Shown here in pieces: positions 192 through 41,295 of a stretch of DNA of 44,784 nucleotides. The notes under the pieces were generated by a model. It was not told the origin of the DNA and ran no database searches. It was given only the letters and a program-made list of their open reading frames with translations. A program made the position numbers and the translations under genes. The stretch lies in sequence record JQ011317. The stretch is one strand, 5' to 3'. Positions within the stretch are counted from its first letter, which is position 1; the number at the start of each line of letters is the position of its first letter. The stretch comes from Escherichia phage TL-2011b.

Positions 192-1439
192 GTGCTTACC
201 GATACAAAATTAAAAAACCTCAAGCCGCAGGACAAACTGTACAAGGTCTCCGATCGTGACGGGCTGTATGTAGCTGTGCTTACGTCAGGCACGGTCTCGT
301 TTCGCTATGACTACCGTATCAACGGTCGCCGCGAAACACTGGTAATCGGGCAGTATGGGCGTGACGGTATCAGCCTGGCAGAAGCGCGAGAAGAACTGAT
401 TGCTGCAAAGAAGCTGCTTAAAGCAGGCCAGTCACCGGCTGCGGCTAAACGTGACGGTATCAAAAAGATTCGTGGTGCCGAGACGTTTGCGGTACATACC
501 GACAGTTATATGAAACATGTCATCCTGGCTGACAGTACCCGCGCAATGAAGCAGGCGGTGATCGACCGTGACATACTTCCGGTTCTTGGCAACAAAATGA
601 TGACTGAAATTACCACATCGATGGTTCGTGATTTGTGTGACCGGATTGTCGAACGCGGTGGTCGGGCAACAGCAGTGCAGGCCAGGGAGATCATCAGCAG
701 CGTATACCGTCACGCCAATGACCGTGGTCATGGTTTGTTTAATCCTGCGGCTGACATTAAACCTTCGTCTATCGCCATATTTAAACCACGAGAGCGAACA
801 CTGACACCAGAAGAAATTGGCCTGTTCTTCCGCACGCTGGATGCCATTGGTGCTATGGGCACTATGAAAATGGCTTTAAAGCTGGTGCTTATCACTATGG
901 TTCGTAAAGGCGAATTCACCAATGCAACGTGGGACGAAATAGATTTTAAAAAATGGACATGGACAATTCCTTCAGACCGCATGAAGGGAAGCCGGGCGCA
1001 TGTTATTTACCTGCCTAAACAGGCACAGGATATATTGGTCGGGTTGCAGATGTACGCTGGTGGAAGTGAATATCTGGTTCCTGGTCGTTACAACTTCCGG
1101 AAGCCATTATCTAATGCCGCGCTGAACTCTCTGATCGACAGAACGGTGAAAATAATAAATGAAGATGGTGAGCATATTCAGGACTTCACCGTACATGATA
1201 TGCGCCGTACAGCCAGTACGTTGTTGCATGAGGCTGGTTATCCTTCAGACTGGATTGAAAAGGCTCTGGCACATGAGCAGAAAGGTGTGCGCGCCGTATA
1301 TAACAAAGCGGAATACGCCAGACAGCGCGCCTACATGTTGCAGCAGTGGGCCGATATGATTGATTCCTGGATTGACGGGGAGCATACGGATCTGATTCCG
1401 TTCTCCCCGTCGAAGTTTGAGAAGTGGATGGCGGGATAA
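192..1439 (+). CDS. int: Tyrosine recombinase / phage integrase (P4-type)
   Basis: 415-aa ORF, GTG start after in-frame stop; C-terminal catalytic signature (HDMRRT ... VRAVYNKAEY); N-terminal arm-binding-type domain. Confidence 0.9.
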   Translation: MLTDTKLKNLKPQDKLYKVSDRDGLYVAVLTSGTVSFRYDYRINGRRETLVIGQYGRDGISLAEAREELIAAKKLLKAGQSPAAAKRDGIKKIRGAETFAVHTDSYMKHVILADSTRAMKQAVIDRDILPVLGNKMMTEITTSMVRDLCDRIVERGGRATAVQAREIISSVYRHANDRGHGLFNPAADIKPSSIAIFKPRERTLTPEEIGLFFRTLDAIGAMGTMKMALKLVLITMVRKGEFTNATWDEIDFKKWTWTIPSDRMKGSRAHVIYLPKQAQDILVGLQMYAGGSEYLVPGRYNFRKPLSNAALNSLIDRTVKIINEDGEHIQDFTVHDMRRTASTLLHEAGYPSDWIEKALAHEQKGVRAVYNKAEYARQRAYMLQQWADMIDSWIDGEHTDLIPFSPSKFEKWMAG

Positions 1440-5305: not shown

Positions 5306-5890
5306 TTATTGTTTGCTTTTTTCGTTCTGGCTGATGACAAATTCAATGTAACTTTCGATCTTTGCCTTCTCTGTTTCAGGTAACAATGCGTAGCGCGAGC
5401 GGTCATAGTTGATAGTTGCAGGGTCATGCGGGTGAATCAGTAGTTCATATCCGTGACGCCCGAATGCTGATGCAACATTCTCCAGGGTGGAAATGGAAAC
5501 GCTGACCTCATTGTTTAACAGGCGGCTAATTGTCACCTGGGCGACGCCGGATGCGCGGTGAAGTTTTCCCTGTGTTGAAAGGTCGCGGCTTTCGCTCATC
5601 CAGCGTTCCAGGTTGTGAGCCGCCAGCTGACCAATGTCGCTTGGTCCGACAGGCTGAACCCCCTCCTGAGAAAGCGAGCGATCGATATCAAGCCAGTTAC
5701 GGGGTTTATTGGCGGCAGCTTCAATTTTTCGCGCAACCTGGTCGCCGATAACCTTCTTGCCAAGAGCCCAGCGGTTTACCAGATTTGCCTGAGTTCCAAG
5801 TTTTTCTGCCATCCGCGTCTGAACACCATTGAATTCACGGTCGATCAAGTCGTTGAGATTTTGCCTGCGGACGTCCTGGATACTTTTCAT
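5306..5890 (-). CDS. Prophage repressor (CI-like), two HTH domains, no S24 peptidase domain
   Basis: 194 aa; divergent from the cro-like gene across a 154-bp operator region; two HTH-like segments; no Ser/Lys autocleavage module; no Shine-Dalgarno before ATG. Confidence 0.6.
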   Translation of the reverse strand: MKSIQDVRRQNLNDLIDREFNGVQTRMAEKLGTQANLVNRWALGKKVIGDQVARKIEAAANKPRNWLDIDRSLSQEGVQPVGPSDIGQLAAHNLERWMSESRDLSTQGKLHRASGVAQVTISRLLNNEVSVSISTLENVASAFGRHGYELLIHPHDPATINYDRSRYALLPETEKAKIESYIEFVISQNEKSKQ

Positions 5891-5945
5891 TTTCTGGAGA
5901 ATCGCCTCATATATGAATCAGTAGATGATTCAATTTAAAGCAATA

Positions 5946-6019
5946 TTACCCAACAGGTAAATGCACCCCATAGGTAACTATCCTTGATTTTTGTTACCTT
6001 ATGGGTGAATATTTATTAT
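5946..6019. promoter_or_regulatory. Immunity-region operator/promoter (pR-like)
   Basis: TTACCCAACAGGTAA at 5946-5960; inverted repeat CCCATAGGTAAC ... GTTACCTTATGGG (5966-6006) over -35 TTGTTA (5991-5996); -10 TATTAT (6014-6019). Confidence 0.5.
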
Positions 6020-14256: not shown

Positions 14257-14419
14257 GAACTGGAAGCAATGAGTTATGCCTTCCGTGGCTGTACTGGTTT
14301 ACAGCATGAAGTCATCGCAATGGCGTCCTGCTGTAAAAAGGGCGGTGATAGTCCTTCAAGGGAAACCATCACCGCCAAGCCCCTGGAACTTCTGGCATCA
14401 CGGTCCTTAGGCGTGATTC

Positions 14420-14496
14420 TGGCGTGGCATGCAGGATTCGAACCTGCGACCAACCGCTTAGAAGGCGGTTGCTCTGTCCAACTGAGCTAATGCCAC
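14420..14496 (-). tRNA. tRNA-Arg (anticodon UCU)
   Basis: 77-nt cloverleaf folded by hand: acceptor GTGGCAT/ATGCCAC, D-stem GCTC/GAGC, anticodon stem ACCGC/GCGGT with loop CTTCTAA, T-arm GCAGG-TTCGAATC-CCTGC, encoded CCA. Confidence 0.85.
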
Positions 14497-19701: not shown

Positions 19702-20025
19702 ATGGAACTCGTAAACCTCAAAACCGGCACTGACAGCTACCAGGATGAGAGCGGAGAAACCAGAACTCGCGATGAATACCCATGGGGGCTGTGCATCACT
19801 CTTAATAACGACACATTGAATAAGCTGAAGGCGCAACCTAAGGGCGTCGGAACGGAAGTGATGATAACTGCAAAGGCTGTTATTCGAGGCCTGTCTGCCA
19901 GAGAAACTGACGATGGTGTCAATCGCAGCGCCGATCTGCAGATCACTGATATGGCGATCGCTCCTGTTTCCGGGGGTGTAGAAAAATCAGCGGCTGAAAC
20001 TCTGTACGGTAACGGAGGTGAGTGA
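19702..20025 (+). CDS. Hypothetical virion protein (107 aa)
   Basis: ATG at 19702 with AGGAG Shine-Dalgarno; coupled to the next gene. Confidence 0.4.
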   Translation: MELVNLKTGTDSYQDESGETRTRDEYPWGLCITLNNDTLNKLKAQPKGVGTEVMITAKAVIRGLSARETDDGVNRSADLQITDMAIAPVSGGVEKSAAETLYGNGGE

Positions 20026-30506: not shown

Positions 30507-30939
30507 CTATTCAGGTATTTCAATTCCAAAACCATCTGCATCCCATGAGTTTTCACAGATGATGTAACCTAGTTCATTGAGCTTATTAAATGTTTTTTCA
30601 AAGATGATCTGGTAATCATTATCTGCAAGTGATTCCAGTTCAAGGTCATTAAGGTTTATATAAAAACTTGTATGTCCAAGTGTTATTTTCTTATTAATTT
30701 CATTAAAGGTTCTTTTGAAAATAATATTTGATATTTCATGTCGTGCATTGTTTGCAATAATTTTTGCTTCATAAGCAGAAATTACGTCATCTTCATGAAT
30801 ATCTTTCAGAAAGCTGGTGTCAAGACGTTGTACTATTTCAGCGTTCATTGATCGCTTATTGGCTTTTGCAGAAATTTCTATTTTTTCTTTTACTTCAACG
30901 GGAAGTCTGATCCCTTAGTTGTGGATCTTCTCTGCTCAT
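30507..30939 (-). pseudogene. Mnt-like ribbon-helix-helix repressor gene with apparent +1 frameshift
   Basis: ATG at 30939 encodes MSREDPQL then stops; the downstream frame continues GIRLPVEVKEKIEISAKANKRSMNAEIVQRL, matching P22 Mnt (MARDDPHFNFRMPMEVREKLKFRAEANGRSMNSELLQIV); one extra base near 30915. Confidence 0.55.
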
Positions 30940-30995: not shown

Positions 30996-31044
30996 TTGAC
31001 ATCAATGACGCACGGTGTGACAATTATTTTGCCCCACGGTGGGG
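30996..31044 (+). promoter_or_regulatory. Pant-like promoter with Omnt-like palindrome
   Basis: -35 TTGACA (30996-31001), 17-bp spacer, -10 GACAAT (31019-31024); palindrome CCCCACGGTGGGG at 31032-31044 (core CCACGGTGG as in P22 Omnt). Confidence 0.55.
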
Positions 31045-31059
31045 CTAAGGAGATATGAA

Positions 31060-31227
31060 ATGCAAAAAGCAAAAGAGATGTGTCAACGACGAGTTCGTTT
31101 TCCGGACGATGTGAAGTTAGCTATTGAAAGAAATGGCGAAAAAGAATGCCGAAAGTTCAATACAGAGATTATCTATCAGCTGAGGAAAGTGTATGGACTC
31201 ACTGGTGAGAAGAATAGCGTGGCATAA
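31060..31227 (+). CDS. Arc-like ribbon-helix-helix repressor (55 aa)
   Basis: ATG at 31060 with AAGGAG Shine-Dalgarno; RVRFPDDVKLAIERNGE ... NTEIIYQL resembles P22 Arc. Confidence 0.55.
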   Translation: MQKAKEMCQRRVRFPDDVKLAIERNGEKECRKFNTEIIYQLRKVYGLTGEKNSVA

Positions 31228-31237
31228 AACAGCGAAG

Positions 31238-31250
31238 CCCCACGGTGGCC
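31238..31250. promoter_or_regulatory. Second Omnt-like palindrome between the arc-like and ant genes
   Basis: CCCCACGGTGGCC with core CCACGGTGG; flanked by inverted repeat GAAGCCC / GGGCTTC. Confidence 0.45.
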
Positions 31251-31299
31251 AGACCGTCAGGGCTTCAGTATCGTAAAACTACGTATAGGAATTAACGAC

Positions 31300-32244
31300 A
31301 TGACGAGTATAGCAACAGCGGTATCTACTATCAACGTGCCATTCCACGGCGCAGAGCTTTATGTTGTCAATCATAACGGCGAACCATACACCCCAATGAA
31401 ACCAGTCGTTGAAGGTATGGGGCTGGACTGGAAAACGCAGTTCCGCAAGTTGCAACAACGCTTTAAGAGCTGCATGGTCGAAATGACCATTCAGCTCCCC
31501 GGTGATACTCAGCGTCGTCTGGTTATCTGTCTTGCTTTACGCAAACTTGCAGGTTGGCTGCAAACCATCAGCCCTAACAAAGTCCGCCCTGAAATCCGCG
31601 ACAAGGTAATCCAGTATCAGGAAGAGTGTGACGATGTGCTCTACGAGTACTGGACTAAAGGCCATGTGGTTAACCCACGCAAAGCTAAAAAGGCGTTGCC
31701 GGGTAAAATAACAACTGAACAGCAGGAAGCCATTAAACAACTCGTCATGAGTCGCGGTCAGTCTCTGCCAAAAGAAAAACAGGCTAAGGCGATGATCACC
31801 ATGTGGTCGTCACTGAAATCTCATTTTGGCTGTTCGTACAAAGAAATTGGTGAAGATCAATTTGCCGAAGCGTTGTCTCTTGTTGCTCGGGTTCCGCTTG
31901 AAGGGGAGTATCTCCCTGCTGGATCTGCATCAGAGAATGATGAAGTGGCAGTCAAGATGTTAGATGCGCTTCGTGAGGCAATTAAAACACAGACAAAATG
32001 TTATGGTTATCCATTGAAGCCCGGCTACCGCAGTCTGATTCATTCTCCGTCTGGTGTTCTCGGTCTGACGGAGAACTCACTGCTGATGAATCTGCTGAAC
32101 CAGTTACAGGAAGACGGGCACGATGTATCGGGCGCGGCGGCGGAGCTGACCACCATGTTCTGTTACATCGTTGGTGTGAGCAAATGCCTGCGTGATATCC
32201 AGACGCACGCGGAGTACATCAACGACAAGGCAGGGTTCTTCTGA
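31300..32244 (+). CDS. Anti-repressor (Ant) family protein 1
   Basis: 314 aa; N-terminal antirepressor-type domain (INVPFHGAELYVVNHNGEPY); C-terminal 77 aa identical to the second Ant protein. Confidence 0.65.
   Translation: MTSIATAVSTINVPFHGAELYVVNHNGEPYTPMKPVVEGMGLDWKTQFRKLQQRFKSCMVEMTIQLPGDTQRRLVICLALRKLAGWLQTISPNKVRPEIRDKVIQYQEECDDVLYEYWTKGHVVNPRKAKKALPGKITTEQQEAIKQLVMSRGQSLPKEKQAKAMITMWSSLKSHFGCSYKEIGEDQFAEALSLVARVPLEGEYLPAGSASENDEVAVKMLDALREAIKTQTKCYGYPLKPGYRSLIHSPSGVLGLTENSLLMNLLNQLQEDGHDVSGAAAELTTMFCYIVGVSKCLRDIQTHAEYINDKAGFF
32008..32244. repeat. Inverted repeat arm A (3' end of ant1)
   Basis: Reverse complement is about 97% identical to 33420-33656 (3 mismatches in the first 84 bp compared by hand). 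Confidence 0.7.
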
Positions 32245-32281
32245 CGGGCGGCGGCACAGGGATGTGCAAAACGAAACTATC

Positions 32282-32550: not shown

Positions 32551-32574
32551 ACAAAAAAGCCCGCGCTGCGGGCT
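32551..32574 (-). terminator. Terminator of the minus-strand two-gene operon
   Basis: Stem AGCCCGC / GCGGGCT with plus-strand A-run (U-run on the minus transcript); overlaps the stop codon. Confidence 0.55.
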
Positions 32575-33118
32575 ATTCCTTCCATTTATCAGAAAAAAGA
32601 TCTTCTTCTAAAGGCATTGGTTCTGTTTTTGTTTTCTCAAAGAATTGATAACTGATAGTGATTGCTTCCTCTTTAAACTCTTCTTGCTCAGTTATGTTGT
32701 GAGCATCTGCGTCAACAAAAAACATAACCAGCGCATCACGATTGTGATTTACCGAATAAACTAAAAAGCAATCACTTGTTGGTATGCATTTTACTTGTAC
32801 AGACGCTATATTTTTCCATGCATCCCAAGATGATTTTTTACCAGTGTGTTTTTTATCACTATCTTCTGGAATATAGTCTTGGTTATCGACATGAGTATGC
32901 CTGACATTTAGTTTAAGCATTTCTGTCGGACGAGCAAATGCAGCATCTTTACCAAGAGATGGATGGTATCCCGTTTTCCAATACTGGGTAAAGGCATCAG
33001 ATACTTTCTTCAGCTCAAGATCAGATGCACAAAGGGCCGAGAAATTTTGCGTATGCAACACTCGACCCTTATATCTGACAACTTGATTTTTATCATTCTG
33101 CGACGCAGACGAACTCAT
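32573..33118 (-). CDS. Putative toxin, YafO-like (181 aa)
   Basis: ATG at 33118; blocks LGKDAAF, LNVRHTHVDN, CFLVYSVNH resemble YafO toxins as recalled; overlaps a small upstream ORF by 26 nt. Confidence 0.4.
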   Translation of the reverse strand: MSSSASQNDKNQVVRYKGRVLHTQNFSALCASDLELKKVSDAFTQYWKTGYHPSLGKDAAFARPTEMLKLNVRHTHVDNQDYIPEDSDKKHTGKKSSWDAWKNIASVQVKCIPTSDCFLVYSVNHNRDALVMFFVDADAHNITEQEEFKEEAITISYQFFEKTKTEPMPLEEDLFSDKWKE

Positions 33119-33272
33119 AATTTTCCTTATTGTTACGAGAATCAAAGAAAGCGCGGGATACGCGACTTGCGTGATCTTTTGTCATAGTAACTTTTACGTA
33201 CTCTACGCTTCCATTGAAAGAACGTCTTGCGGCAGCTTGCGCTCTACGCATCTGCAATTTTTCGTTTCGCAT
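33093..33272 (-). CDS. Small basic protein (59 aa), putative antitoxin/regulator
   Basis: ATG at 33272 with GAGGT Shine-Dalgarno 6 nt upstream; below the ORF-track cutoff; TTACC-N5-GGTAA site 61 bp upstream. Confidence 0.4.
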   Translation of the reverse strand: MRNEKLQMRRAQAAARRSFNGSVEYVKVTMTKDHASRVSRAFFDSRNNKENYEFVCVAE

Positions 33273-33347: not shown

Positions 33348-33419
33348 TAGTACGCTATTCACCCACAGTCTGCAATCTGTACAGAATTATTTAAAGGCAC
33401 ATCCCTGTGCCGCCGCCCG

Positions 33420-33656
33420 TCAGAAGAACCCTGCTTTGTCGTTGATGTACTCCGCGTGCGTCTGGATATCACGCAGGCATTTGCTCACACCGACGATGTA
33501 GCAGAACATGGTGGTCAGCTCCGCCGCCGCGCCCGATACGTCGTGCCCGTCTTCCTGTAACTGGTTCAGCAGATTCATCAGCAGTGAGTTCTCCGTCAGG
33601 CCGAGAACACCAGACGGCGAGTGAATCAGGCTGCGGTAGCCTGGCTTCAGCGGGGC
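33420..33656. repeat. Inverted repeat arm B (3' end of ant2)
   Basis: See arm A at 32008-32244. Confidence 0.7.
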
Positions 33657-34115
33657 GCTGTAGGTTTTGTTCTCTATCTTCATCGCCTGCATCACTGCTG
33701 ACGCCGTGGCGTTGGCTACCTGGTCGGCAACCATCTTTATGCGTTCTTCCTGCGGGAGCGAGTTTTTAATGTAACTTCCGGTGCGGCGGATCTGAGGAAG
33801 AACCTCACCTGTAACCCATTTACGAAAGCGGTAGGGGATAGTGCCTGGTGTCACCGCATCGCGGCAGCGGAGGATCAGTGTGTAGAGGCCTGACTCGGAG
33901 ATGATGATCGATTCTTGCTCACCGCCAGGGGTGTCGGTTGAAGCGACGCCCTTCTCATCATCATCAAGTTTTCGAACAGCATCTCGATGGTTTGCTATGC
34001 CTATAGCCCGACAAACATCTGAAGCGATAAACCATGGCTCACCATTAATGACGATTACCCGTATATCGGCTTGGGATTCGAAAGAAAAAATGGACGTGCT
34101 TTTTGTAGCTGTCAT
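33420..34115 (-). CDS. Anti-repressor (Ant/Bro-N) family protein 2
   Basis: 231 aa; Bro-N-like N-terminus (VIVINGEPWFIASDVCRAIGI); C-terminal 77 aa identical to ant1. Confidence 0.7.
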   Translation of the reverse strand: MTATKSTSIFSFESQADIRVIVINGEPWFIASDVCRAIGIANHRDAVRKLDDDEKGVASTDTPGGEQESIIISESGLYTLILRCRDAVTPGTIPYRFRKWVTGEVLPQIRRTGSYIKNSLPQEERIKMVADQVANATASAVMQAMKIENKTYSAPLKPGYRSLIHSPSGVLGLTENSLLMNLLNQLQEDGHDVSGAAAELTTMFCYIVGVSKCLRDIQTHAEYINDKAGFF

Positions 34116-34384
34116 AGTGGTTACCTTTTAGTCTGGTTAATCACCACTACCGACGCCAATCGGTTGGTGGTGAACTGTGCAGGGTTGGCGTAACCGGCTA
34201 AAAGGACCCGGCGCACCTTTCGGTGCCCCCACACAGCCCACCATAATACGAATGTGGCCGTGCTATACGCATAAAAAAACCGCTTGCGCGGTGAATGCGC
34301 CTTTTAGTAATCCGGGACGCCAATCCCGGCACTGGATTTTTCCAGTGCCCGATTACTATGGCACAAGAGGAGTGCGATGTAAAT

Positions 34385-34492
34385 TTACCGCAAAGGTAAT
34401 GATAAGCGCGGGGATATATAAAAATCAACCGTATTTGGTTGGTGGCGTTTAACGCTTGATCACCTGAAAGCAAGATATTACCTTTAAGGTAA
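34385..34492. promoter_or_regulatory. Two TTACC-N5-GGTAA sites in the 400-bp noncoding region upstream of ant2 and the zinc-ribbon membrane protein gene
   Basis: TTACCGCAAAGGTAA (34385-34399) and TTACCTTTAAGGTAA (34478-34492). Confidence 0.45.
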
Positions 34493-34512
34493 TGTTATTG
34501 TGAGGAAAAGCA

Positions 34513-35241
34513 ATGGAAGTTTTCTGGATAGTTGTTGGTGTGGTTGCGGTGATTATTTACGTTATCAACCAGAACAAGACTAAGATCTCTGATCGTACGG
34601 TCGTTAATCATAACAAAACGATAAAGACCGAAGATGGGGAGATAACGATTAATCGTACACAGGTGATAGAACACACCTCTACTCAGTTTCAAAAAACTGG
34701 AGGTAATGCGCCTAATATTTCCGCACCTCCTGCTTATGATAGTGCGGTAATCCAGACATATTATAAACAGCAGGAGTTAGCAAAAGAGAGGCAACTGATT
34801 CAGCCAAAGCCATTTACAGCAGAGCTTCCACCTGGAGTGTCAACGCGTCCGGCATATCATGGAAGATTCCCTGGTGATGACGTATCGTCTCAGTCACCTA
34901 AAAAAGCACCTCAGGCAGTATCAGAGCCAGCAAGAATACCTTCTGTATCGCCGTCAAAAGAAGAATCAGCTAACGAAGTTTCAAGTGCCCGCAAGCAGTG
35001 TTTGCGATGCAGAATAAACCTTCCATATGAAAAATTCAGGAAATCGTCAAAAAATCCAGATGGATTGACTAAGTGGTGTGCAAGGTGTCTCGATGGCCCA
35101 AAGAATACACGTCATATGAAGTGGTGCCCAATTTGTAATGTCCGCAGAAAACGAACCAGCTTTTACCCTAATAATCAAAATGCGGATGGCTTAATGGCAT
35201 GGTGCAAAACGTGCTGGGACGAGCACAAAGCGAAACGATAG
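34513..35241 (+). CDS. Membrane-anchored protein with two C-terminal Cys4 zinc-ribbon repeats
   Basis: N-terminal TM helix, Pro/Ser-rich linker, two repeats of C-x2-C ... DGL-x3-WC-x2-C. Confidence 0.5.
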   Translation: MEVFWIVVGVVAVIIYVINQNKTKISDRTVVNHNKTIKTEDGEITINRTQVIEHTSTQFQKTGGNAPNISAPPAYDSAVIQTYYKQQELAKERQLIQPKPFTAELPPGVSTRPAYHGRFPGDDVSSQSPKKAPQAVSEPARIPSVSPSKEESANEVSSARKQCLRCRINLPYEKFRKSSKNPDGLTKWCARCLDGPKNTRHMKWCPICNVRRKRTSFYPNNQNADGLMAWCKTCWDEHKAKR

Positions 35242-35264
35242 GCCGCTCTTGCGGCCTTTTCTTT
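35241..35264. terminator. Terminator shared by convergent genes
   Basis: Stem GGCCGC / GCGGCC, loop TCTT, then TTTTCTTT. Confidence 0.55.
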
Positions 35265-35520
35265 ATGTGGTTTGTTTTCGTAGTTGTTCGGCACAATAGT
35301 CGAGATGTGTTTGCAGATCCTGCATAGACATCTGTGAGCTGGTGACGTAGTTAATCAGTGCAGTCAGTTCGGCAAGTGGGCCATCGACATTAAATCCATC
35401 CTTATCGAGATCCCGGAGTAATTTCATCAAGTGCGATCCCTCCACCAGTGATCTGACGCCTCCCGGCGTGTGAATCCTTTCGGTAAATCCGTCTTCCAGT
35501 GGATAGTGATACTGCTGCAT
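35263..35520 (-). CDS. Stand-alone Ant C-terminal-domain protein (85 aa); candidate LexA-controlled antirepressor (Tum-like)
   Basis: ATG at 35520 with GGAGAAG Shine-Dalgarno; diverged homologue of the C-terminal domain shared by both Ant proteins; LexA box 20 bp upstream. Confidence 0.55.
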   Translation of the reverse strand: MQQYHYPLEDGFTERIHTPGGVRSLVEGSHLMKLLRDLDKDGFNVDGPLAELTALINYVTSSQMSMQDLQTHLDYCAEQLRKQTT

Positions 35521-35538
35521 CTTATCTTCTCCATGCAA

Positions 35539-35560
35539 TAACTGTATAAATATACAGTAG
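35539..35560. promoter_or_regulatory. LexA (SOS) box
   Basis: AACTGTATAAATATACAGTA: CTGT-N8-ACAG with AT-rich spacer, close to the LexA consensus. Confidence 0.75.
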
Positions 35561-35596
35561 CAAATAATTTGTTTGCTATCCAGCACGTTTTGCGAA

Positions 35597-35611
35597 TCAC
35601 CTGAAAGGTAA
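35597..35611. promoter_or_regulatory. TCACC-N5-GGTAA site upstream of the tailspike gene
   Basis: TCACCTGAAAGGTAA, one mismatch to the recurring palindrome. Confidence 0.35.
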
Positions 35612-35715
35612 TATCTGTTCGTATTTATGGGTTATCTATCCATATGTGGTTTTTCAGGTAATAGAATAACCGGATATGCGGCGCAACGGGTGCTGCGACT
35701 ATCTGGAGATTTAAC

Positions 35716-37809
35716 ATGACGGTCTCAACCGAAGTTGACCACAACGAATACACCGGTAACGGTGTTACAACGACATTCCCTTATACCTTCAGGATTTTCC
35801 AGAAATCTGATTTAGTAGTGCAGGTTGTTGACCTGAACGAGAACATCACAGAGCTGATTCTTGACACTGATTACATAGTTACTGGGGCTGGAGGATACAA
35901 TGGTGGCAATATAATTCTGTCGAAGGCATTGGTTAGCGGTTATCTGATTTCTATATCACGAGAGCTCCCGGTTACGCAGGAAACTGATTTGCGTAATCAG
36001 GGTAAGTTCTTTGCAGAAGTGCATGAGGATGCTTTTGATAAGCTAACGATGCTGATCCAGCAGGTTCGAAGTTGGTTTAGCTTGGCGCTGCGTAAGCCGT
36101 CATTCGTGGCAAATTATTATGATGCGCTTAACAATTACATCAGAAACTTACGCGATCCTTCAACCCCCCAAGATGCAGCCACTAAAAATTATGTTGATAC
36201 ACAGCTCAGTTCTAACCTGGGGTGTACTTTGCGCGTTCAGGAGCAGATACCGCAACTTCCTGATGCTGCCTCCCGCGCAAACAAGATGCCTGCTTTCGAT
36301 AACGATGGTAACCCTATTGTTGTGCTTCCTCCATCAGGGTCTGCGTCTGACGTATTGATCGAGCTAGCCAAGCCAACTGGATCTGACTTGGTTGGTTATG
36401 GGTCACAGACGGTTAAAGCAACCCTTGATAGCCTGAATAGCATGCGGGAGGAGCTTCTTGATAAAACAGGATTTAATGCGCTGGGGCGCTTCCTTAATCT
36501 TTCAGAGCTTCGCTCCTGTGTTCCGGAGGAGGCAGGGCAGATTGTATACGTAGCATCAGCAGCTAGCACTACACATGCTGAAAACCACCTTGGTGGCGGC
36601 TTTTTCGAGTCTGTTGATAACATTCAGGCGTGGGCTGATGATGGTGGAATTGTAATCAAGCCAGAAACTGGAACGATGGTATGGAGACGAATTAATTTTA
36701 CCACTTACGACATGCAATTTTGGGGGGTGAAACCTGACGGAGTCACAGATAACGCAACAGCTATAACTCTTGCAACTAACTTTGCTCGCTCAAACAAATG
36801 CATTCTAGAGGCTCCTGCTGGAAACATAAATACATCAAAAACAATCCCAATTTATGACAATATGGGAATTAGAGGACAGGGAAAGGCTGAAGCGACAGTT
36901 TTTTATAAAACAACAAATGACAAAATAGATCTCACAAAAAATGGAGAAGTAATTCTTCAGGTGGATGCATTATGTGCTTTTATACCAAAGCAATGGGATC
37001 TAACAGATAACTCAATTAGTTCATTTTGTGTTAACGGTAGAGTTGAAAACTGCATGTTTAGAAGGCTTGGCTTAACACAAGAAAATGTAGATTCTTATAG
37101 AAATTATTACGGACTGTTTTTAGGAAAATCAGCAGCACCAGTTATCAGACAGTCAATTTTTGAATGTGCTTATATCGGATGCTTCTCTTATGTGCCGTTC
37201 TCTGGCGTAATGGAAATGGTCGGTTTCCCACAATATCCAGGGAAAGGATATGCTGGAGTTTTGTTTGAAGATTTTAGGGATGGTCAAATAAAAGTAATTG
37301 GCACTTCTATGGATATGCGCCTTGTTCAAGTTAATGGTTACCAGTTGTCATTTAGAATGTCCGGGATGCAATATACTACCATGACCAATTGTACAGCTGA
37401 AAACTGCACGCCAATGGATGGGGAATCAACTTGCTACGCATTTGATTTTGTAAATCCGTATTGCATTGTCATGAATACTTGTGCAACAGAATTTGTTAAA
37501 GGGGGGCAATTGCGTGTTAGCGTTCAGGGAAACCCATCATTCCGCCCATCTATTATTGTCAATGGCTTTCTACCAATTGACCAACAAAGTCCAGTAGTGC
37601 AAACACCTATAATTGATATTGACAATGGTGGTGTTGTTGAAATGAGTGTCATATTGAATGGTGGTGATTGGGCAATAAATCCATCGGCTGTAAATTTAAC
37701 TTCTCCAAAAGCAAGTGGTAATGGGTTGAAGGTAAGATTGATCGGTGTAAATGGCTCTCCTTCTTCGGTGTGGAGTGCGTCTTCTGGTGCAGAAGTAAGG
37801 GAGTTCTAA
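35716..37809 (+). CDS. Tailspike / tail fiber protein
   Basis: 697 aa; N-terminal virion-attachment-type domain followed by a long beta-rich C-terminal region; GGAGA Shine-Dalgarno. Confidence 0.65.
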   Translation: MTVSTEVDHNEYTGNGVTTTFPYTFRIFQKSDLVVQVVDLNENITELILDTDYIVTGAGGYNGGNIILSKALVSGYLISISRELPVTQETDLRNQGKFFAEVHEDAFDKLTMLIQQVRSWFSLALRKPSFVANYYDALNNYIRNLRDPSTPQDAATKNYVDTQLSSNLGCTLRVQEQIPQLPDAASRANKMPAFDNDGNPIVVLPPSGSASDVLIELAKPTGSDLVGYGSQTVKATLDSLNSMREELLDKTGFNALGRFLNLSELRSCVPEEAGQIVYVASAASTTHAENHLGGGFFESVDNIQAWADDGGIVIKPETGTMVWRRINFTTYDMQFWGVKPDGVTDNATAITLATNFARSNKCILEAPAGNINTSKTIPIYDNMGIRGQGKAEATVFYKTTNDKIDLTKNGEVILQVDALCAFIPKQWDLTDNSISSFCVNGRVENCMFRRLGLTQENVDSYRNYYGLFLGKSAAPVIRQSIFECAYIGCFSYVPFSGVMEMVGFPQYPGKGYAGVLFEDFRDGQIKVIGTSMDMRLVQVNGYQLSFRMSGMQYTTMTNCTAENCTPMDGESTCYAFDFVNPYCIVMNTCATEFVKGGQLRVSVQGNPSFRPSIIVNGFLPIDQQSPVVQTPIIDIDNGGVVEMSVILNGGDWAINPSAVNLTSPKASGNGLKVRLIGVNGSPSSVWSASSGAEVREF

Positions 37810-37879: not shown

Positions 37880-38986
37880 ATGAATAATAAAGGTAATATA
37901 ATTCAAAGTCTTACATCGTTGAGAATGTTTGCCGCTCTTGGTGTTTTTGTTAGTCACCTTGGGCTATTGTCTCAATCATCAATTGGTGTGTTTAATGCTG
38001 CGGCAAAGTATTTTTTTAATGGTTACATAGGTGTGACATTTTTCTACATTCTTTCTGGTTTTATTATAAACTATAGTTTCATAAATCATGTAGAAAAAGA
38101 AGCATTCAGCAATAAAGATTTTATTGTGTACAGAATAGCAAGAATATTTCCTGTGCATATTGTAGCTCTTCTTTGCTTTATTTTAATATTTATGCATGGT
38201 AAGATGGGTGATGGTATTAGTAAGGAAATGCTTATTTCAAATGTGTTTCTGGTGCAGTCATTCATCCCAATTCAGGATTATTATTTTTCTTTTAACTCCG
38301 TTTCATGGAGTATCTCATGTGAGATGTTTTTCTACGTTTCATTCTGCTTCTTAACAAGGCTAAAAACAAAATATTTAGTCTGTGTTCTGTTATTTGTTCT
38401 TGTGATTAATTTCTATTTCTTAATTAACCCGCCCATAACAATATCACAGCACTGGTTGTTTTATATAAACCCAGCATTTAGAATTGGTGATTTTATTATA
38501 GGGATGATGCTCTGTAGAGTATTTATTAATACTAGTGCAAGACCTAACAATACTGTTTGCAGTATCATTGAAATTGCATCAATATTGTCATTGCTTTTGA
38601 CAGTATATATAGCAACAAACTATATTACATATATGAATATAAAGTATGATGTTCTATATATTCCTTGCATGGCATTTATAGTTATTGCCTTTGCTTTTAA
38701 TGGTGGGATATTATCTAAAATTCTTAAAAATAGATTTATGGTTTTGCTTGGCGAGGCTTCTTTTTCATTTTATATGTTTCACTGGATGATTATTCAAATA
38801 GTAACAAAAATATTGAGCGTAGAAAAAGACAACTTTATCGATATGTTGGTGTATGTTGTTTTATCTTTGTTTGTTTCTATTATTGCATCAATACTATCAT
38901 TCAAGTTGATAGAAATGCCAATAAATAAAACAATAAGAAGATGTTGGAAAAAATATAGGGGGATGCAGTCTGTCAGGAGTGCATGA
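37880..38986 (+). CDS. Acyltransferase family 3 membrane protein (O-antigen O-acetyltransferase, serotype conversion)
   Basis: 368 aa, about 10 predicted TM helices, AT-rich; N-terminal R..AALGVFVSH pattern typical of acyltransferase-3 proteins. Confidence 0.75.
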   Translation: MNNKGNIIQSLTSLRMFAALGVFVSHLGLLSQSSIGVFNAAAKYFFNGYIGVTFFYILSGFIINYSFINHVEKEAFSNKDFIVYRIARIFPVHIVALLCFILIFMHGKMGDGISKEMLISNVFLVQSFIPIQDYYFSFNSVSWSISCEMFFYVSFCFLTRLKTKYLVCVLLFVLVINFYFLINPPITISQHWLFYINPAFRIGDFIIGMMLCRVFINTSARPNNTVCSIIEIASILSLLLTVYIATNYITYMNIKYDVLYIPCMAFIVIAFAFNGGILSKILKNRFMVLLGEASFSFYMFHWMIIQIVTKILSVEKDNFIDMLVYVVLSLFVSIIASILSFKLIEMPINKTIRRCWKKYRGMQSVRSA

Positions 38987-41250: not shown

Positions 41251-41265
41251 ATTGAGTGGGAATGA
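41251..41265 (+). other. guaA: Orphan 3' terminus of guaA (IEWE-stop) at the right prophage junction
   Basis: ATTGAGTGGGAATGA encodes IEWE-stop, the GMP synthase C-terminus, with an in-frame stop just upstream; inverted copy CCACTCAATT at 41221-41230. Confidence 0.5.
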
Positions 41266-41295
41266 TTTTAATCCCTGCACTATGAATGAACAAAA

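Follow-up and report, generated by a model that had tools for sequence, protein, structure and literature searches.

The region between the tailspike gene of Escherichia phage TL-2011b and a small open reading frame that diverges from it raises the question of how this prophage would sense DNA damage. In lambda and P22, induction is also coupled to the SOS response, and the coupling there is made by RecA-stimulated autocleavage of the repressor (CI or C2). The original prediction for the locus proposed another route, in which a LexA box controls a small antirepressor and induction follows from LexA derepression of that gene rather than from repressor cleavage. We followed up this proposal in the window, by which we mean the whole stretch of 44,784 nucleotides that was analyzed (sequence record JQ011317). 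The system as such is already known: the mechanism has been shown genetically, biochemically, and structurally for Salmonella phage SPC32H, in work published in 2013 and 2016. From sequence comparison and by analogy with that phage, the locus is very probably the SOS-sensing arm of an epsilon15/phiV10-like lysis-lysogeny switch, orthologous to the Rep-Ant-LexA module of SPC32H.

RESULTS

Identity of the window

The window contains a tyrosine integrase gene and a single copy (41251 to 41267) of the attP core described in phiV10, epsilon15, and ZX5. From 35263 rightwards, its DNA is 94 to 98% identical to Escherichia phage phiV10 and relatives and 77 to 78% identical to the epsilon15-type Salmonella phages. 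Given the integrase gene, the lone attP core, and this similarity, the window is essentially one epsilon15/phiV10-like (genus Uetakevirus) E. coli prophage. The small antirepressor gene, ant, lies on the minus strand and diverges from the tailspike gene across a 195-bp intergenic region (Table 1). The window, SPC32H, and phiV10 share the same gene order, in which the tail genes are followed by a gene for a small membrane protein, the opposite-strand ant, and the divergent tailspike gene; ant thus occupies the site of an SPC32H-type module in an epsilon15-like podovirus, with tail genes on one side and the divergent tailspike gene on the other.

Table 1. Features of the window that bear on the proposed switch (positions are those of the window; PWM, position weight matrix; A1, alignment of nine genomes described in the text)
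Feature	Position	Strand	Basis or remark
Tyrosine integrase gene	192-1439		
rep, 194-aa prophage repressor, ortholog of SPC32H Rep	5306-5890	-	PDB 5D50_A match
Operator-like palindrome in intergenic region upstream of rep	5945-5961		Motif search
Mnt/Arc-family gene, frameshifted; divergent from P22-type ant	30507-30939	-	Comparison with intact relatives
Arc-like ribbon-helix-helix gene upstream of P22-type ant	31039-31227	+	phrog_228 "Arc-like repressor," E = 2e-5
sar antisense RNA across arc-ant junction	31231-31298	-	Rfam RF00262, 44.8 bits (gathering score 43)
314-aa large antirepressor, P22_AR_N plus the same C-terminal Ant-like domain as the 231-aa protein	31300-32244	+	Pfam P22_AR_N, E = 3e-45
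231-aa large antirepressor, Bro-N plus C-terminal SPC32H-Ant-like domain	33420-34115	-	Pfam Bro-N
C4 antisense RNA	34163-34248	-	Rfam RF01695, 77.7 bits (gathering score 45)
isrK-like RNA	34273-34348	-	Rfam RF01394, 76.7 bits (gathering score 50)
Two operator-like palindromes upstream of the isrK/C4/ant leader	34384-34400; 34477-34493		Copy at 34477-34493 is perfect
GC-rich hairpin separating ant from the convergent 242-aa gene	35240-35257		Terminator scan; RNA fold -16.1 kcal/mol, z = -3.5
ant, 85-aa stand-alone antirepressor, ortholog of SPC32H Ant	35263-35520	-	PDB 5D50_E and phrog_450 matches
Ribosome-binding site GGAGAAG of ant	35526-35532	-	Read from sequence
LexA (SOS) box AACTGTATAAATATACAGTA, predicted	35540-35559	Sequence given on +	Consensus, PWM, conservation
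Predicted ant promoter: -35 TGGATA (35582-35577), 17-nt spacer, TG-extended -10 TGcTACTGT (35562-35554)	35554-35582	-	Invariant columns of A1
Palindrome ATCACCTGAAAGGTAAT (ATTACC-N5-GGTAAT type), putative Rep operator	35596-35612		14 bp upstream of inferred ant -35
Tailspike gene	35716-37809	+	Neighbor of box region
Acyltransferase gene	37880-38986		Neighbor region

A LexA box upstream of ant

The box AACTGTATAAATATACAGTA agrees with the palindromic LexA consensus TACTGTATATATATACAGTA at 18 of 20 positions; its two mismatches compare with three in the box of SPC32H. When the 44.8 kb were searched with up to three mismatches to the consensus allowed, this was the sole match, and none of 100 dinucleotide shuffles gave one. 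Scoring by information content had been put forward as a check in the original prediction, and we did this with a position weight matrix (PWM) trained on 24 E. coli SOS boxes. At 27.2 bits, the box outscored all sites used for training (maximum, 26.5); the second-best site in the window reached 10.6 bits and the best of 200 shuffles 18.8. Two matches to CTGT-N8-ACAG elsewhere in the window, at 14289 and 18831, were dismissed as LexA sites (PWM scores of 9.4 bits or less).

The box is separated from the ant ATG by 19 to 20 nucleotides. To follow it across relatives, we used an alignment of the tailspike-ant intergenic region from nine Uetakevirus genomes (the window, phiV10, SPC32H, epsilon15, Tyrion, BUCT554, and three Klebsiella phages). 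The LexA box is conserved in this alignment, with ATGT instead of CTGT in the distal half-site of the three Klebsiella phages. The SPC32H genome holds exactly one LexA-like site, 20 nucleotides upstream of ant, so that the spacing is as in the window. When we compared the records of SPC32H and SPC32N, exactly two positions differed. One, a G-to-T change at position 19960, turns the CTGT of the orthologous LexA box into CTTT, and the other falls in the tailspike gene. SPC32N is said to be a spontaneously lytic sibling of SPC32H, a phenotype that Kim and Ryu in 2013 reportedly traced to a single changed base in the LexA site that controls ant.

The small antirepressor gene and its signals

PDB entry 5D50 is the Rep-Ant complex of SPC32H, a phage whose GenBank record names both ant and rep. 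Residues 2 to 85 of the 85-aa product aligned with chain E of this entry ("Anti-repressor protein"; E = 1.3e-47), and the protein was 87 to 88% identical to SPC32H Ant (annotated "ant: anti-repressor protein"), making it a small stand-alone Ant of the SPC32H kind (about 86 aa). It also matches phrog_450, which PHROGs labels "unknown function." Searches of Pfam and NCBIfam assigned it no family; a Pfam match to DUF724 was spurious, at 17.6 bits against a cut-off of 38.4.

The ATG at 35520 lines up with the annotated start of SPC32H ant and is preceded by the ribosome-binding site GGAGAAG, and the GGAG and the ATG are invariant across the nine aligned genomes. Both the near-consensus box and its position 20 bp upstream of this minus-strand start were as originally predicted. 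A longer frame of 107 aa that begins at a GTG (35586) was rejected as the start of ant, being an artefact of taking the longest open reading frame.

A scan of 35150 to 35800 with a strict sigma-70 consensus returned no promoter site. The invariant columns of the alignment include CTGGA-A about 17 nucleotides before TGnTA, and from these we propose a weaker ant promoter with a conserved -35 and an extended -10 element. The LexA box just upstream of ant would overlap this promoter, covering about -12 to +8. At the other end of the gene, the GC-rich hairpin between ant and the convergent 242-aa gene is likely a bidirectional terminator.

A repressor of the SPC32H type

The original prediction had described the 194-aa repressor as having two helix-turn-helix segments and no S24 autocleavage module, and this description proved accurate. 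Pfam placed HTH_3 at residues 106 to 147 and a weaker HTH-type match at residues 21 to 61; Peptidase_S24 gave no match at E values up to 0.01, so the protein does not qualify as an autocleavable repressor of the CI/LexA type. Over its full length it matched chain A of 5D50 ("Repressor"; E = 6.6e-42) and showed 42% identity to SPC32H Rep; the two agree in their two-domain layout, and their C-terminal domains align without gaps. The repressors of phiV10 and vB_EcoP_ZX5 are much closer to it, at 98.5% identity. We accordingly regard it as a two-domain homolog of SPC32H Rep that carries no autocleavage (S24) domain, and induction through repressor autocleavage was dismissed on this ground.

A palindrome of the form ATTACC-N5-GGTAAT is a likely operator of Rep, judging from its number and placement. 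With up to two mismatches allowed, the window has 17 copies against 1.5 expected, and SPC32H has 18 against 1.0. In both, copies flank rep on either side and lie in many intergenic sites, and some occur as pairs 62 bp apart (5171/5233 and 8226/8288 in the window; 33603/33665 and 35971/36033 in SPC32H). The copy next to ant, ATCACCTGAAAGGTAAT, is kept in all nine aligned genomes, SPC32H having a perfect copy at the same place, and the epsilon15 record annotates the orthologous palindrome next to ant as a "repressor" binding site. If the palindrome is the Rep operator, the ant or the tailspike promoter may be under additional control by Rep.

Two large proteins that carry the Ant domain

The small Ant had been predicted to be a diverged copy of a C-terminal domain shared by two large antirepressors, and the comparisons bear this out. 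Its identity to the 231-aa Bro-N protein is 42% (E = 8e-16) over the C-terminal part of the latter, a domain that itself matches 5D50 chain E (E = 1e-13). The 314-aa protein matches phrog_450 (E = 2e-35), and no P22_AR_C domain was found in it with Pfam. Both large proteins have an identical C-terminal stretch, whose two coding segments form a 292-nucleotide inverted repeat (91% matched). The domain is thus joined to two different N-terminal domains, Bro-N and P22_AR_N, and with Arc-family genes, sar, and C4 close by, the surroundings are immI-like, again as had been proposed.

The Bro-N gene lies within a stretch that is 98.6% identical to ZX5 DNA and includes the annotated anti-repressor of ZX5; in phiV10, the corresponding gene is truncated inside the Ant domain. 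The C4 and isrK-like RNAs form the leader of the Bro-N gene, directly upstream of it, and the a1b1 motif, a target of C4, scored 41.7 bits, just under its gathering score of 46.7. This is the layout of a P1-type immI region, in which the C4 antisense RNA and its targets precede ant. At the P22-type gene, P22_AR_N, arc, and sar are all present as in P22 immI, and an intact maintenance repressor of the Mnt type is missing: compared with the intact 143-aa gene of ETEC1749, the Mnt-like gene has one additional G at about codon 9 to 10, although a sequencing error in a run of G is possible. The 5.4-kb mosaic accessory region that holds both large genes (29.85 to 35.26 kb) is absent from SPC32H and only partly present in phiV10. 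Its full arrangement occurs in 15 of 5,426 complete E. coli genomes.

DISCUSSION

A proposed route from DNA damage to induction

By analogy with SPC32H, whose orthologous module works in this way, our results support the proposal that induction proceeds through a LexA-derepressed small antirepressor and not through cleavage of the repressor. In a lysogen, host LexA would occupy its box over the -10 element and start site of ant, and the monocistronic gene would be silent. Upon DNA damage, active RecA would lead LexA to cleave itself, and ant would then be transcribed as far as the hairpin downstream of it. The 85-aa Ant would bind the prophage repressor, and the noncleavable Rep would leave its operators, probably the ATTACC-N5-GGTAAT palindromes, so that lytic genes would be switched on with the repressor uncut. 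For the E. coli phage, we infer LexA binding, the contact between Ant and Rep, the precise promoter, and which sequence serves as the operator from what holds for SPC32H.

Published work on the Salmonella phage gives this analogy its content. A review credits Kim and Ryu (2013) with showing that LexA self-cleavage is followed by synthesis of Ant, which inhibits the SPC32H repressor by protein-protein interaction. Secondary papers add that SPC32H Rep binds DNA as a tetramer, that Ant, itself tetrameric, engages two Rep dimers and takes the Rep tetramer apart, and that the C-terminal domain of Rep carries both the tetramerization and the Ant contact. Because Rep is only 42% identical to its SPC32H counterpart and Ant 88%, the contact in our phage rests on orthology and on co-occurrence: of 34 phage records with Rep, 33 also have Ant.

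Phage ZX5, whose Ant is 100% identical to that of the window over 84 aa, behaves in keeping with such a switch. In the ZX5 paper, mitomycin C raised the titer of free phage from 1e7 to 1e9 (about 100-fold), and overexpression of the repressor blocked lytic growth. That study, from 2022, examined only the large Bro-N antirepressor, and the small ant gene goes unmentioned in it. Overexpression of the Bro-N anti-repressor (ORF4) lowered lysogeny, with the prophage titer falling from 1e9 to 1e6. Given two more proteins with the Ant domain in the window, one of them of this ORF4 type, the small Ant may not be the sole route to induction.

Other readings of the locus

The ZX5 overexpression result also speaks for the large antirepressors as the operative inducers, with the LexA-controlled small Ant as a redundant or minor trigger. 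Both large proteins contain the Ant domain, and the P22-type gene could be expressed more strongly because its Mnt-like regulator is frameshifted. We nevertheless consider this reading improbable. With the PWM, no LexA-like site was found in the window near either large gene, and both genes lie behind RNA circuits that maintain lysogeny, C4/isrK in one case and sar in the other. A second place for the Ant domain, and with it any large protein of this kind, was found in none of 12 Salmonella phage records, including that of SPC32H, which switches through the small Ant alone, and the Bro-N gene of phiV10 is cut short within the domain.

The partner of the small Ant could also be sought elsewhere, in the repressors of co-resident prophages, on which it would mainly act in trans, or in superinfection, where it would serve as an anti-immunity factor, its own Rep not being the target. 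Trans-acting antirepressors under LexA control are documented for the Gifsy prophages, according to a review, and Ant is far more conserved across the genus than Rep, as the respective identities to SPC32H show. We consider this very unlikely all the same, since Ant and Rep co-occur almost without exception, the crystallized complex pairs Ant with its own Rep, and the Rep domain said to carry the Ant contact aligns without gaps. That the palindrome is a chance match, or serves to control the tailspike gene while the small reading frame is not SOS regulated, hardly deserves credence. The box does lie inside an intergenic region shared with the tailspike gene; its distance to the ant ATG, however, is fixed at 20 nucleotides in all relatives, whereas the tailspike ATG is 157 bp away. 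Moreover, no shuffled sequence matched the consensus as it does, its score exceeds those of the known SOS boxes used for training, and one of just two differences between SPC32H and SPC32N falls within it. Control of the small Ant by LexA, with Rep of the same phage as its target, is the reading that we favor.

Comparison with known systems

The switch of SPC32H (Kim and Ryu 2013, J Virol 87:11775; Kim et al. 2016, PNAS 113:E2480; PDB 5D50 and 5D4Z) resembles the one proposed here in its genus, its gene order, the spacing of its LexA box, and the neighboring palindrome. It differs in host (Salmonella rather than E. coli), in the modest identity of Rep, and in lacking an accessory region that encodes two more proteins with the Ant domain. 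The same logic, as a review sets out, governs Tum of coliphage 186 and the GfoA/GfhA-type antirepressors of Gifsy and Fels-2: a small gene is repressed by LexA, and its product inactivates a noncleavable repressor by binding it. They belong to other types of phage, and their likeness to the Ant of the window is one of logic. Lambda CI and P22 C2 share with our phage the coupling of induction to SOS; in the window, the signal would instead pass through LexA and Ant, as Rep has no Peptidase_S24 domain. SPC32H Ant was reportedly described by Kim and Ryu as structurally distinct from Tum and from the GfoA/GfhA-type antirepressors.

The immI regions of P22 and of P1 and P7 invite comparison with the large genes. 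As in P22, P22_AR_N (in the 314-aa protein) is preceded by an Arc-like gene and sar, and a Mnt/Arc-family gene diverges from it. The differences from P22 are that the C-terminal domain in the window is SPC32H-Ant-like, that the Mnt-like gene is frameshifted, and that this region has no role in the LexA-controlled unit. In P1 and P7, C4 controls icd-ant, and C4 likewise stands, with isrK, directly upstream of the Bro-N ant gene of the window; the order of small RNA, short leader, and antirepressor is also that of isrK-orf45-anrP in Gifsy-1. Unlike P1, the window has a repressor of the SPC32H type in place of C1, and its antirepressor ends in the SPC32H-Ant module.

Distribution of the Ant domain and its annotation

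When 1.84 billion representative proteins were searched exhaustively with a profile, the Ant domain turned up in only 59 clusters. Most of these are stand-alone proteins of 80 to 95 aa. The longer proteins number about eight, and each of them has the domain at its C-terminal end, preceded by an AntA, Bro-N, Rha, or ORF6N head; the P22_AR_N of the window is a fifth type of head joined to it. A word-indexed protein search gave stand-alone relatives only, the fused forms appearing just in the exhaustive profile search.

We tentatively suggest, as a speculation with less in its favor than against it, that the SPC32H-type Ant is a portable repressor-binding module, put to three uses in this prophage and linked into a feed-forward latch, with the C-terminal domain setting which repressor is targeted. 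The three inputs would be LexA for the domain alone, the C4/isrK leader, itself flanked by palindromes like the putative Rep operator, for its fusion to Bro-N, and Arc/sar together with the broken Mnt-like gene for its fusion to P22_AR_N. In such a latch, the small Ant triggered by SOS would start induction; Rep would then also come off the palindromes upstream of the Bro-N operon, and more Ant domain would be made. For large antirepressors generally, the head (Bro-N, AntA, Rha, ORF6N, or P22_AR_N) would have some task other than targeting the repressor. To see Ant as a C-terminal module of large antirepressors under Arc/sar or C4/isrK control would be a modest gain, useful for reading antirepressor architectures.

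Among complete E. coli genomes, 529 of 5,426 (about 10%) have the ant locus, and its product is named "hypothetical protein" in every E. coli record among the matches listed. Correct naming would account for the way in which prophages of the phiV10 type, which are common in O157 and other pathogenic E. coli, react to antibiotics that damage DNA. Kim and Ryu are said to have noted, in 2013, many Ant homologues in prophages and temperate podoviruses.

A probable operator sequence for Rep

The palindrome ATTACC-N5-GGTAAT occurs 17 times in the window when up to two mismatches are allowed, compared to 1.5 copies expected. Its enrichment in Salmonella phage SPC32H is equal to that in the window, with copies grouped around rep, the prophage repressor gene, and in the epsilon15 record the copy that adjoins ant is labelled as a repressor site. 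ATTACC-N5-GGTAAT is probably the operator bound by Rep. In both the window and SPC32H, pairs of palindromes recur at a spacing of exactly 62 bp, an arrangement that would suit a tetrameric repressor occupying two sites on the same face of the helix.

Features of the window and of SPC32H, with coordinates
Feature	Position	Strand	Basis or remark
Palindrome copies (17 bp each)	134, 5171, 5233, 5945, 8226, 8288, 11589, 11607, 14818, 33332, 34384, 34477, 35596
62-bp palindrome pairs, window	5171/5233 and 8226/8288
62-bp palindrome pairs, SPC32H (L009)	33603/33665 and 35971/36033
tRNA gene	14423-14496	minus	Rfam 73.3 bits
Mnt/Arc-family gene	30507-30939	minus	Extra G near 30912
sar antisense RNA	31231-31298	minus	Rfam 44.8 bits (gathering score 43)
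Inverted repeat (292 nt, 91% matched)	31976-32267 and 33397-33688
YafO-family type II toxin homolog	32573-33145	minus	Pfam 26.1 bits (cut-off 25)
Small ORF, candidate toxin partner	33093-33272
C4 antisense RNA	34163-34248	minus	Rfam, well above gathering score
isrK-like RNA	34273-34348	minus	Rfam, well above gathering score
242-aa gene	34513-35241	plus	phrog_6762 (unknown function)
attP/attB core	41251-41267		Single copy

RNA elements and neighbors of the antirepressor genes

Two RNAs, one a C4 antisense RNA and the other isrK-like, are located in the leader of the gene for the Bro-N antirepressor, and the layout of leader and gene is similar to those of P1 immI and of Gifsy-1 isrK-orf45-anrP. 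The corresponding gene of phiV10 (p23; L002, 6571-7250 region) is truncated inside its Ant-like C-terminal domain and is followed by a tiny ORF, p22; phiV10, the type phage, is therefore probably without a functional large Ant. In phiV10 the small ant gene and the Bro-N ant operon are adjacent, while in the window they are separated by the insertion of a 242-aa gene, whose product carries repeated, Cys-rich C-terminal segments similar to the zinc motifs of Stc1, HNH and endonuclease VII proteins.

At the P22-type antirepressor gene, a sar RNA spans the boundary where the Arc-like gene meets the gene for the P22_AR_N antirepressor. The Mnt/Arc-family gene is intact in E. coli strain ETEC1749, where it encodes 143 aa, whereas the window's copy has a one-base insertion (GGG for GG) at approximately codon 9 to 10 that truncates the ribbon-helix-helix domain; either the gene is genuinely inactivated or the extra base comes from an error in sequencing.

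With their 3' ends, the two large ant genes form a 292-nt inverted repeat that could promote inversion or the exchange of cassettes. Between its arms, and hence between the two genes, is a 1.1-kb segment that carries the gene for a YafO-family type II toxin homolog. A small ORF upstream of this toxin homolog may encode its partner.

Among the Klebsiella Uetakeviruses, the LexA box upstream of ant has the distal half-site ATGT rather than CTGT in all three phages (L006, L007 and L008). The motif DGHDVSGAAAEL is common to their small Ants and to the C-terminal domains of the window's large Ants.

tRNA gene and attachment site

SPC32H carries a tRNA-Arg at the place equivalent to that of the window's tRNA gene. 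The core ATTGAGTGGGAATGATT has been reported for phiV10, epsilon15 and the near-identical E. coli phage ZX5, with the 3' end of guaA as the integration site. Its single copy in the window marks one prophage end, and a second copy would be expected at or beyond the window's left edge.
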